IMG/VR virus record: IMGVR_UViG_2609459833_000005
Span: 1-21,924 of that record
Direction: 5' to 3' (one strand)
DNA length: 21,924 nucleotides
Source of the DNA: a virus
Lineage: Duplodnaviria > Heunggongvirae > Uroviricota > Caudoviricetes
Shown here: positions 15,408 through 16,200 of the stretch, in pieces
Numbering within the stretch: the stretch's first letter is position 1
Layout: each line of letters begins with the position of its first letter
Notes under the pieces: model-generated
Databases searched by the model: none
Told to the model about the DNA's origin: nothing
Seen by the model: only the letters and a program-made list of their open reading frames with translations
Position numbers and translations under genes: made by a program

Positions 15408-15736
15408 GCTGGAAACTTTGGGAAAATAAGGGTTCGTCAACCAATAATTTTCGGGAAATCTCGGAAACGTCAACCAATAATTTTCGGGAAATCTCGGAAA
15501 CGTCAACCAACTATCCGGTAACTCCGGATGGTTGGATAAGCTGTAGTGAGCGAATGCCGGATGATGGTCAGCACGTAATTATTTTATGTGATGGCGCATT
15601 CGTTCTTTATGCGCAATATCGAGACGGTGAGTTTTTTGATGTAGTCCGTAATGGTGATGAATTTTTCGAAACACAGAGCCGCAATGTAACCGACTGGATG
15701 CCGTTACCAGAACCGCCGCAGGAGGTGCGCCAATGA
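15353..15736 (+). CDS. DUF551-family phage protein with an N-terminal 11-residue tandem repeat; start uncertain
   Basis: C-terminal domain ends in the DUF551-type W-x-P-L-P-E-P-P motif (TDWMPLPEPPQ); N-terminal region contains STNNFREISET twice, encoded by a 33-bp tandem repeat. Confidence 0.5.
   Translation: MGYGAWLDYLVSPRRHALGWKLWENKGSSTNNFREISETSTNNFREISETSTNYPVTPDGWISCSERMPDDGQHVIILCDGAFVLYAQYRDGEFFDVVRNGDEFFETQSRNVTDWMPLPEPPQEVRQ
15435..15510 (+). repeat. 33-bp direct tandem repeat, 2.3 copies (cgtcaaccaataattttcgggaaatctcggaaa)
   Basis: Two exact 33-bp units (15435-15467, 15468-15500) and a 10-bp partial third; in frame with the DUF551 ORF. Confidence 0.85.
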
Positions 15737-15816
15737 TCTGGCCTGAAGCATTTGCAATTACAGGCGTTGCTATGGCTATCGCTTTTTTAGTATATGTTAT
15801 TTGTCGGTGTGGGTAA
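15733..15816 (+). CDS. 27-aa hydrophobic single-TM peptide (MIWPEAFAITGVAMAIAFLVYVICRCG)
   Basis: Below the ORF-track length cutoff; ATG overlaps the DUF551 stop (ATGA) with SD ggagg 8 nt upstream. Confidence 0.4.
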   Translation: MIWPEAFAITGVAMAIAFLVYVICRCG

Positions 15817-15851
15817 AAGCGTTCGCCGGGATTAACACCAAAGGAGGGAAT

Positions 15852-15956
15852 GTGTCGGATGATATCTCACTGGCAATGGAAGGTGCGCTGGCTGTTATTG
15901 CTGTTGTGGGTGTTTACTGCCTGGTTGTGTTTTTGATGGATCGACTAGGGAACTGA
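15852..15956 (+). CDS. 34-aa hydrophobic single-TM peptide (MSDDISLAMEGALAVIAVVGVYCLVVFLMDRLGN; GTG start)
   Basis: Below the ORF-track cutoff; SD aaggaggg 5-6 nt upstream of GTG; resembles the preceding peptide in its A-x-A-x-x-x-VY hydrophobic core. Confidence 0.4.
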   Translation: MSDDISLAMEGALAVIAVVGVYCLVVFLMDRLGN

Positions 15957-16200
15957 ATTCATTACGATATGGGAATTCCCATATCGGGTAAAAACGGTTT
16001 GCGGTAAAGCGAGAGTTAAGTAGAATTGCTGCGGGTGCTTGAGGCTGTCTGCCTCGGGCATGCCACCGTAAGGCAGACAGAGAAAAGCCCCAGTTAACAT
16101 TATGCGTCTTGCAGGACGCTTAACATTAATCTGAGGCCAATTTCATGCTAGTCACATGTAGGTTAGCCTCTTACACGCCGAAAGGCAAGGAGAAGCAGGC

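Follow-up and report, generated by a model that had tools for sequence, protein, structure and literature searches.

Here we describe a region of a 21,924-nucleotide stretch of DNA, referred to below as the window, which comprises positions 1 to 21,924 of the IMG/VR virus record IMGVR_UViG_2609459833_000005 (Duplodnaviria; Heunggongvirae; Uroviricota; Caudoviricetes). Upstream of the hok gene of the window lie two small open reading frames (ORFs), encoding hydrophobic peptides of 27 and 34 aa (ORF1 and ORF2), followed by a perfect 22-bp palindrome. The explanation that we favour, with a probability of about 0.55, is that this region is a mosaic joint in a decaying lambdoid prophage, where three independent things stand side by side: ORF1, ORF2 and the palindrome. 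On the comparisons given below, ORF1 is a genuine phage membrane microprotein gene, and the palindrome is a sequence selected as nucleic acid that behaves as an autonomous unit. A preliminary description of the region had located all three elements correctly, and had rightly credited both ORFs with good ribosome-binding sites. The features are as follows.

15733 (ATG) to 15816 (TAA), plus strand: ORF1, 27 aa, MIWPEAFAITGVAMAIAFLVYVICRCG, a single-pass microprotein
15720..15726, plus strand: Shine-Dalgarno sequence of ORF1, AGGAGGT, 6 nt before the ATG, by sequence reading
15852..15956, plus strand: ORF2, 34 aa, (M)SDDISLAMEGALAVIAVVGVYCLVVFLMDRLGN, with a GTG start (RefSeq WP_001278450.1, Sakai ECs_5710)
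15841..15847, plus strand: Shine-Dalgarno sequence of ORF2, AAGGAGG, 4 nt before the start
15965..15986, no strand assigned: perfect 22-bp palindrome CGATATGGGAATTCCCATATCG with the core GGGAATTCCC, a copy of a dispersed element

Architecture of the joint between ORF1 and hok

The segment between ORF1 and hok is bounded by two copies of a direct repeat.

15811..15827, plus strand: first copy, GGGTAAAAgCGTTCGCC, comprising the ORF1 stop and hok-upstream-like sequence (repeat search, family D5)
15986..16002, plus strand: second copy, GGGTAAAAACGGTTTGC, at the start of the conserved hok module

The two copies bracket an extra 175 bp containing ORF2 and the palindrome, and the Sakai-type first copy is identical to the second at 15 of 17 aligned positions. 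In 933W and phage pPE4, which lack both ORF2 and the palindrome, the ORF1 stop abuts the hok promoter region directly (ORF1-TAA-AAACGGTTTGCGG, with the fusion sequence ...TGG(A/G)GATAA-AAACGGTTTGCGGG). Compared with the 933W arrangement, ORF2 and the palindrome make up a 175-bp cassette. The same slot in Escherichia coli 50579417 holds an ORF1 homologue, a terminator and a minus-strand KilA-N gene containing the palindrome, followed by hok, and window positions 15954-15989 are 89% identical over 36 nt to an internal segment of this KilA-N gene. The palindrome of the window would most likely derive from such a KilA-N cassette, which fills the ORF1-hok slot in other strains, and would now mark a recombination joint. 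The candidate that ORF2 itself is an antisense remnant of the KilA-N gene was rejected, the similarity being confined to the palindrome.

Among 168 sampled hok modules, the sequence to the left of the palindrome, where it precedes the promoter, is of at least five unrelated kinds (ORF2, paa, ORF6N and two others). Most hok modules lack the palindrome and start at the equivalent of ~15983-16014. At a paa-hok locus (L171, ~1880-1910), exactly 22 nt (aggtgaactgaattcattccga) immediately to the left of the palindrome core are lost and a 16-bp palindrome remains. Empty sites were sought with a flank-anchored pattern, which gave filled sites only, and by local junction BLAST, which gave only this 22-nt deletion variant.

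ORF1, a phage- and plasmid-borne microprotein family

The start codon of ORF1 overlaps the stop codon of the preceding DUF551 frame (cAATGAtc), whose last codons (PEPPQEVRQ) contain the ORF1 Shine-Dalgarno sequence. The ATGA overlap is found in almost all contexts of the family, behind genes that differ from one another (DUF551 proteins ending in ...PEPPQEVRQ, proteins ending in ...NGLISVEDILR, 933W L0139, Av-05 gp123 and SJ46 J46_0092), and the Shine-Dalgarno sequence is kept at most homologous loci. Ribosomes ending the preceding DUF551/Ea-type gene would reinitiate on ORF1 at the ATGA, with the ORF's own Shine-Dalgarno sequence available besides. The translational coupling proposed in the preliminary description is borne out by the overlap; in this copy the DUF551 gene is a frameshifted pseudogene, and the coupling is therefore probably weakened here.

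The family consensus is M-x-W-P-[ED]-A-F-A-x-x-G-V-A followed by a transmembrane stretch, and 26 peptide variants of 22-29 aa were recovered. In ORF1 of the window, the hydrophobic stretch covers residues 7-23 (17 residues, mean Kyte-Doolittle value 2.48), suggesting a topology with one membrane-spanning helix, the acidic N-terminus outside and the C-terminal Arg inside. The frame tolerates a 6-nt in-frame deletion, and comparison of the window type with six other selected types gives proportions of synonymous (pS) and non-synonymous (pN) differences of 0.59-0.68 and 0.17-0.26, and a ratio of non-synonymous to synonymous rates (dN/dS) of 0.15-0.24, values by which ORF1 is under purifying selection. 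In round figures, pN is ~0.2 and pS 0.6-0.8.

Of 5426 complete E. coli genomes, 746 match a 276-nt query that contains ORF1, ORF2 and the palindrome, at a median of 3 places per genome. Matches to the ORF1 part alone, each following an Ea/DUF551 gene, are found in the Shigella phages POCJ13 and 75/02, in Stx2a_1447 (adjoining xis-int) and in the P1-like Salmonella phage SJ46. A degenerate DNA pattern for M-x-W-P-E/D-A-F-A...G-V-A finds at least 119 loci in IMG/VR, and tblastn with the ORF1 peptide finds 102 phage records (including 933W, VT2-Sakai, Min27, BP-4795 and the virulent Av-05) and 230 plasmid records. A search of genome contigs gave two matches only, one of them a longer Pseudobdellovibrionaceae protein; the family is essentially phage- and plasmid-borne. 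The Pseudobdellovibrionaceae ORF, on the minus strand of the metagenome-assembled genome contig CAZFPB010000007.1 (~7618-7655), is longer than 60 aa and starts with MTWPEAFAIVGVAF..., which has the ORF1-like N-terminal motif although the bacterial lineage is a distant one. The homologue in Shigella phage POCJ13 (1209-1290) has a TAG at codon 3 and is a dead copy, in place of which the record annotates two opposite-strand ORFs.

ORF1, which like ORF2 was missing from the ORF track behind the preliminary description, is unannotated in every record inspected; the sole annotated instance found is a 24-aa protein of one metagenomic phage. The family is an addition to the known phage microproteins, widespread and almost never annotated, with members in 933W, VT2-Sakai and a large number of Stx phages, and its nearly constant tie to Ea/DUF551 accessory genes gives a handle on those genes. 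It is of the same kind as the small membrane proteins that ribosome profiling has revealed in E. coli (XECs145, described below, and those in the K-12 catalogues), being under 50 aa, with one transmembrane helix, and missed by annotation. It differs from them in being phage-borne, below a 30-aa cut-off, coupled to Ea/DUF551 genes, and present in temperate, P1-like and virulent phages.

ORF2, a translated peptide of E. coli prophages

On ORF2, the preliminary description needs correction: this ORF is present in RefSeq (WP_001278450.1) and in the Sakai annotation (ECs_5710). Its homologues, searched with a 51-aa TTG-extended frame as the query, are all from E. coli, with an identity of 84% or more in the region aligned. 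Among 18 nucleotide haplotypes there are 20 variable sites. Eleven of these fall on third codon positions, and the amino acids exchanged are similar in kind (A/V, I/V, I/M, F/L, D/E). The Shine-Dalgarno sequence is AAGGAGG or AGGGAGG in all haplotypes, and the start codon is ATG in 15 of the 17 haplotypes other than that of the window and GTG in one. E. coli O55:H7 TB182A (1328-1539) carries ORF2 duplicated head to tail, the second copy having a TTG start and no Shine-Dalgarno sequence. ORF2, which appears unrelated to ORF1 and restricted to E. coli prophages, would be translated by means of its own strong Shine-Dalgarno sequence. The hydrophobic stretch covers residues 13-29 (17 residues, mean Kyte-Doolittle value 2.95); each peptide has a single such stretch (means of ~2.5 and 2.95), in agreement with the original view of both as single-pass hydrophobic peptides.

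The Sakai copy of ORF2 is the translated gene XECs145, to which an arbitrary upstream ATA start was assigned (Huecker et al. 2017, PMC5597208), and the ORF2 described here is this same gene with a shorter and better-supported start. In lysogeny broth (LB), XECs145 gave 79.1 reads per kilobase per million (RPKM) of RNA and 346.1 RPKM of ribosome footprints, with a ribosomal coverage value (RCV) of 4.35 and a coverage of 0.99 (PMC5597208 S2 Table); in brain heart infusion (BHI), the RCV was 1.14 (PMC5597208). Ribosome profiling, which had been proposed as a check, is thus available in published form for the Sakai orthologue of ORF2, and the proposed check of conservation gave conserved relatives for both peptides and a widely recurring palindrome. 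Conservation of frame, start and Shine-Dalgarno sequence, together with purifying selection, therefore places both ORF1 and ORF2 among microprotein genes. What is new is the ORF1 family, which is almost never annotated, while the translation of ORF2 and its presence in RefSeq were already known. ECs_5710, WP_001278450 and the WPEAFA motif were not found described in the literature searches made, and the supplements of the Enterobacteriaceae microproteome catalogue contain neither ORF.

Relation of the peptides to toxins and to each other

The composition of the two peptides had suggested type I toxins, forming with hok a cluster of membrane-active peptides. The corresponding explanation, that they are Hok-like membrane poisons silenced by antisense RNAs and part of a toxin cluster with hok, is improbable. 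Both are indeed short, very hydrophobic and single-pass, within the size and hydrophobicity range of type I toxins (<60 aa, one transmembrane helix), they adjoin hok, and a weak minus-strand promoter-like site within ORF1 (window 15817-15789, TTTACC-17-TATACT) would yield RNA antisense to the ORF1 start. However, the scan gave three promoter-like matches, compared with 1.2 +/- 1.3 in shuffles, and the ORF1 site, which lies within chance expectation, is by sequence reading weaker or not kept in 933W-type homologues. Neither peptide matches Pfam or NCBIfam at the curated cut-off, PHROGs gives only weak matches to families of unknown function, and by these databases neither belongs to a known toxin family (Hok, Ldr, Ibs, TisB, ShoB etc.). 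The sole antitoxin RNA in an Rfam E-value scan of 15000-17000 is the sok of hok, and the suggested search for antisense promoters or RNAs accordingly yielded this RNA and the one chance-level site. Like Hok/Gef with Sok, the two are small single-pass hydrophobic peptides in prophage accessory regions, and ORF1 repeatedly stands directly upstream of hok modules; unlike Hok/Gef, they have no HOK_GEF match, no long structured leader and, as far as found, no antisense RNA. Translation is not blocked, with AGGAGGT and AAGGAGG exposed 4-6 nt from the starts and an ATGA overlap at ORF1; the exposed Shine-Dalgarno sequences, the coupling of ORF1 and the high footprint occupancy of the ORF2 orthologue in growing Sakai cells are the opposite of type I toxin silencing. 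A functional cluster with hok is likewise unsupported, since ORF1 travels with DUF551/Ea-type genes even without hok (in virulent phages and beside xis-int), and the palindrome occurs in dozens of hok-free contexts. That the two ORFs are mere chance open frames in the DUF551-hok spacer is more improbable still: they are very short, ORF1 is uncalled by annotation pipelines, and GTG and Cys variants are present here, but the conservation data already contradict it: selection is purifying, indels stay in frame, and both the Shine-Dalgarno sequences and the start-stop overlap are kept among divergent phages. Ribosome footprints, moreover, lie over ORF2. The two are real phage microproteins of an ordinary kind, most likely non-toxic accessory proteins of the inner membrane.

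The similar hydrophobic core attributed to the two peptides lacks significance, as 5.9% of composition-preserving shuffles attain their Smith-Waterman score of 27, and paralogy of ORF1 and ORF2 was rejected.

The palindrome at this locus

The palindrome is the only one of its kind in the window, and 0 of 100 shuffles match it when up to 3 mismatches are permitted. It begins 8 nt beyond the stop of ORF2, and the RNA form is a hairpin of 9 bp closed by an AAUU loop (-14.5 kcal/mol, z = -4). The palindrome is thus non-random, and the earlier account of a perfect palindrome and a possible stable hairpin is upheld to this extent; the binding-site role proposed with it is one of several competing, and on balance unlikely, explanations weighed below. 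The palindrome is present in 957 of 5426 E. coli genomes. Four substitution variants are found in hok loci, two with loop changes and two with C-to-T changes that leave plus-strand G-U pairs, and one hok-locus variant has lost one arm base.

Second operator copies or half-sites within the window are at chance level only. The hairpin has no U-tract on either strand and is not listed by the terminator scan, and it differs in this from an intrinsic terminator (GC-rich hairpin plus U-tract). It precedes the start of the Rfam sok/hok model at 16033, and lies outside the known hok/sok regulatory elements (tac, fbi, ucb/dcb, sokT). The sequence agrees at 22 of 22 positions with copies from E. coli, Gloeothece and IMG/VR that belong to the GGGAATTCCC-core palindrome class of KilA-N genes, a class defined in this analysis, but it is not in frame here: the window has no KilA-N gene, and a minus-strand alignment extends over only 11 residues including two stop codons. 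A sequencing-adapter artefact was considered and rejected, the palindrome being present in complete genomes from many laboratories and in frame inside intact genes. The literature searches made gave no description of the palindrome, of DMGIPIS or of a KilA-N palindrome.

The palindrome in KilA-N genes

The identical 22-mer is found in frame, encoding D-M-G-I-P-I-S, in KilA-N genes with diverged flanks, whose range extends from prophages of E. coli to plasmids of cyanobacteria. Every ORF of at least 170 codons that spans the palindrome reads it in this frame. Among loci collected by protein-level patterns, the block GAT ATG GGA ATT CCC ATA TCG is nearly invariant despite its rare codons, while flanking codons vary freely (Leu as TTA/CTT/CTA/CTG, Ser as TCA/TCC/TCG/TCT/AGT). 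The KilA-N gene of a Gloeothece PCC 7424 plasmid contains the exact palindrome; its flanks are 53% and 28% identical to those of the E. coli gene, compared with 100% for the 22-mer. KilA-N genes of Nostoc punctiforme pNPUN01 and of Halotia contain the palindrome with one mismatch, and Nostoc pNPUN02 has an exact copy in an unannotated KilA-N remnant. Where distant KilA-N genes lack G-I-P, they also lack the palindrome.

In two KilA-N lineages, both arms have changed together with 11 of 11 pairs kept (CGATGCGGGAATTCCCGCATCG and CGAAACGGGAATTCCCGTTTCG, encoding D-A-G-I-P-A-S and E-T-G-I-P-V-S). In a sample of 113 unique sites, chosen only for CG-N4-GGGAATTCCC-N4-CG, the arms are fully complementary in 26, compared with 4.3 expected on re-dealt arms and a maximum of 12 in 2000 permutations, a test inflated by the relatedness of the KilA-N genes. 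The identity over 22 nt and the arms changing in step therefore point to selection on the nucleic acid itself within the gene of a DNA-binding domain. Rather than a hok operator, the palindrome of the window would be a copy of a self-contained element of 22-24 bp, selected for both sequence and self-complementarity, whose apparent home is the D-M-G-I-P-I-S subfamily of KilA-N genes and which also stands free at cassette boundaries.

Other occurrences of the palindrome

After removal of hok-adjacent copies, 66 loci in the IMG/VR scan still contain the palindrome. In all loci collected at that stage, the exact core occurs in 50 distinct flank contexts with a local GC content of 0.31-0.71 and sharp boundaries at 22-24 bp, often just after stop codons or beside intrinsic terminators. 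Contexts without KilA-N similarity on either side include a RecT linker, intergenic arrays in Dhillonviruses, and a 2380-codon ORF at a GC content of 0.71. In an IMG/VR contig of GC content 0.67 (L223, 13859-13913), a related second core, ACGGGAATTCCCGT, lies a few bases from a canonical copy in the same ORF (...DMGIPISPPADPVTGIPVSG...).

The RecT, related to Dysgonomonas proteins, has the palindrome in its C-terminal linker and is ~8 residues longer than its relatives; the palindrome is present in 0 of its 9 closest homologues, and the linker is too diverged for exact insertion boundaries to be read. A gene resembling HNH_3/NUMOD4 homing endonucleases lies just upstream of RecT both in the palindrome-bearing locus and in a palindrome-free relative (L473 and L475). 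In closely related Dhillonviruses, a 54-bp unit ending in the palindrome follows the helicase-primase stop codon, in 0 copies in SSL-2009a, 1 in welsh, 2 in PNS1 and 5 in Teewinot. The Teewinot tandem copies have a 53-bp period and keep the motif TGGGAATTCCCATATCG where the left arm, and hence most of the hairpin, is lost. Beside the palindrome units, the intergenic region after the helicase-primase (Teewinot 37600-38400, welsh 1440-2050) is dense in short repeats, with ATTGGTTGC present several times and GCGGGACA ~seven times, and has an origin-like or regulatory-like look.

Origin and possible roles of the palindrome

On present data, the palindrome may act as a hairpin in RNA or in single-stranded DNA, as a symmetric site for a protein, or as a joint for recombination, and any effect on hok is conjectural. 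An operator, centred here ~57 bp upstream of the hok start, for a dimeric DNA-binding protein of phage or host, possibly of the KilA-N type, modulating the hok promoter or the upstream operon, is unlikely. The perfect twofold symmetry with 11-bp half-sites, the tandem copies of regular period in Teewinot and the retention there of TGGGAATTCCCATATCG despite left-arm loss, the location inside genes for DNA-binding domains, which would permit autoregulation, and the symmetric arm changes, which would suit co-evolving half-sites, are all in line with such a site. Against this, neither Teewinot nor the window encodes a KilA-N protein, and such a protein was rejected as the binder both for Dhillonviruses and for this prophage; further sites or half-sites are not enriched in the window; a very conserved binder would be demanded by sites that are identical in hosts as far apart as Bacteroidota and Cyanobacteria; repressors do not usually bind upstream of the -35; and most hok loci function without the palindrome. 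We consider it similarly doubtful that the palindrome forms, as RNA, a hairpin that closes the 3' end of the transcript of ORF1 and ORF2, stabilizing this end or stopping read-through and insulating the hok mRNA. The stable 9-bp hairpin close behind the ORF2 stop, the frequent placement elsewhere after stops or beside terminators, the loop and G-U-preserving substitutions in hok loci and the compensatory arm changes in KilA-N genes fit this role, and resemble known terminators and 3' stabilizer hairpins, in which a GC-topped stable hairpin follows a few bases past the stop. It differs from these in lacking a U-tract and in the conservation of sequence, not merely pairing, across unrelated genomes, which a hairpin role would not need; the Teewinot copies, which lose the lower stem, keep the sequence.

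A somewhat better candidate, though still one that we do not favour, is that the palindrome here is a passive, inert relic of a deleted KilA-N gene, its recurrence reflecting KilA-N conservation and recombination at a short identical block. The 36-nt similarity to the strain with KilA-N in the same slot, the lack of obviously greater conservation than the flanks in hok loci, and the variant with a base lost from one arm would be expected of a relic, whereas the intact palindrome upstream of hok beside at least five unrelated left flanks, and in the contexts without KilA-N similarity (RecT linker, Dhillonvirus arrays, 2380-codon ORF), would not. If it is inert, the finding shrinks to two ordinary small membrane proteins beside hok. 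Equally tentative is the broader proposal that the palindrome represents a class, so far undescribed, of mini-elements that are self-complementary and ultraconserved, with arms that covary around the core GGGAATTCCC, native to a KilA-N subfamily across phyla and escaping to cassette boundaries, linkers and tandem arrays, either by moving or as a universal recombination joint or recognition site. In that case the ORF2-palindrome cassette upstream of hok would be one footprint of a process of phage mosaicism, and a recognition or recombination site could explain the swapping of hok, ORF2 and KilA-N cassettes at fixed joints.

A number of points weigh against the mosaic joint of three independent elements, or against its parts. 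The search for a clean pair of sites, one filled and one empty, that differ by exactly the 22-24 bp gave none. Conservation of the palindrome in hok loci does not clearly exceed that of its flanks; many G-I-P sites with an identical core have non-complementary arms; and, in addition to the inflation of the permutation test, most palindrome searches demanded the exact core, which inflates its apparent invariance. As Sakai may hold several prophage copies to which the ORF2 footprint reads map, the reads may not stem from one copy, and non-toxicity is judged from expression in growing cells. ORF1 could not have been reported in the Sakai study, because only ORFs of at least 30 aa were taken there (PMC5597208). 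Finally, the copy in the window may be in decay, with a broken DUF551 gene, Cys26 in ORF1 in place of the Trp of almost all relatives, and a GTG in ORF2 in place of ATG.

Comparison with known palindromic elements

Rickettsia palindromic elements, REP/BIME and Correia elements are short self-complementary DNAs of 35-150 bp, imperfect and species-restricted, which are found in many unrelated places, sometimes in frame in coding sequence, and show presence/absence polymorphism. Compared with these, the palindrome described here is shorter (22-24 bp), perfect, identical across phyla, rare (tens of contexts) and native to one gene family, with no transposase or RAYT partner seen. The hr palindromes of baculoviruses have an EcoRI core, lie near bro genes in repeats of regular period, and are origin- or enhancer-like; Bro-N is related to KilA-N. 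The GAATTC centre, the regular period and the association with KilA-N/Bro-type genes are shared, and are a lead only: the hr elements belong to eukaryotic viruses and differ in sequence and length.

Prophage setting and neighbouring genes

The prophage is integrated next to potC/potD, and three BLAST segments, which together cover window 1438-19253 and 21419-21924, align with E. coli SW070917 at 99.6-99.98% identity. The order of genes in the near-identical SW070917 locus, along the window plus strand, is a cro-like gene, ydaT, replication genes, DUF1627, DUF977, DUF4406, an ead/Ea22-like pseudogene and the frameshifted DUF551 gene, followed by the region of interest and then hok, DUF968, RusA and a DUF1133 gene. 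From this order, ORF1, ORF2 and the palindrome therefore sit in the nin-like part of the early-right operon. The neighbouring features are as follows.

15353..15736, plus strand: 3' reading frame of the DUF551 (Ea-type) gene, a pseudogene here (Pfam PF04448, E = 3e-21)
15999..16026, plus strand: putative hok promoter, by sequence reading, with -35 TTGCGG (15999-16004), a 16-nt spacer and -10 TAGAAT (16021-16026)
16033..16357, plus strand: hok mRNA leader with the sok target, mok frame and hok (Rfam RF01794, 117.6 bits)
16145-16357, plus strand: mok frame, within the hok mRNA
16202-16357, plus strand: hok (Pfam HOK_GEF, 2.7e-22; named hokD by PGAP)

The hok promoter is absent from the output of the consensus promoter scan, and hence is given as putative. 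In the identical SW070917 locus, the DUF551 gene is labelled 'frameshifted; internal stop' by PGAP. The frameshift and internal stop of the window copy (15141-15736), together with the Cys26 of ORF1 and the GTG start of ORF2, give the module a mildly degraded appearance. Within this gene, three 33-bp tandem repeats (15417-15515) encode a repeated ...NNFREISETST... segment, a peptide module that is also present in many Ea/DUF551-type proteins upstream of ORF1 homologues. By the SW070917 annotation, the immunity region (window ~8800-10200) includes a relB/relE-type toxin-antitoxin pair beside a repressor-like gene, and dicB is present in the early-left operon.

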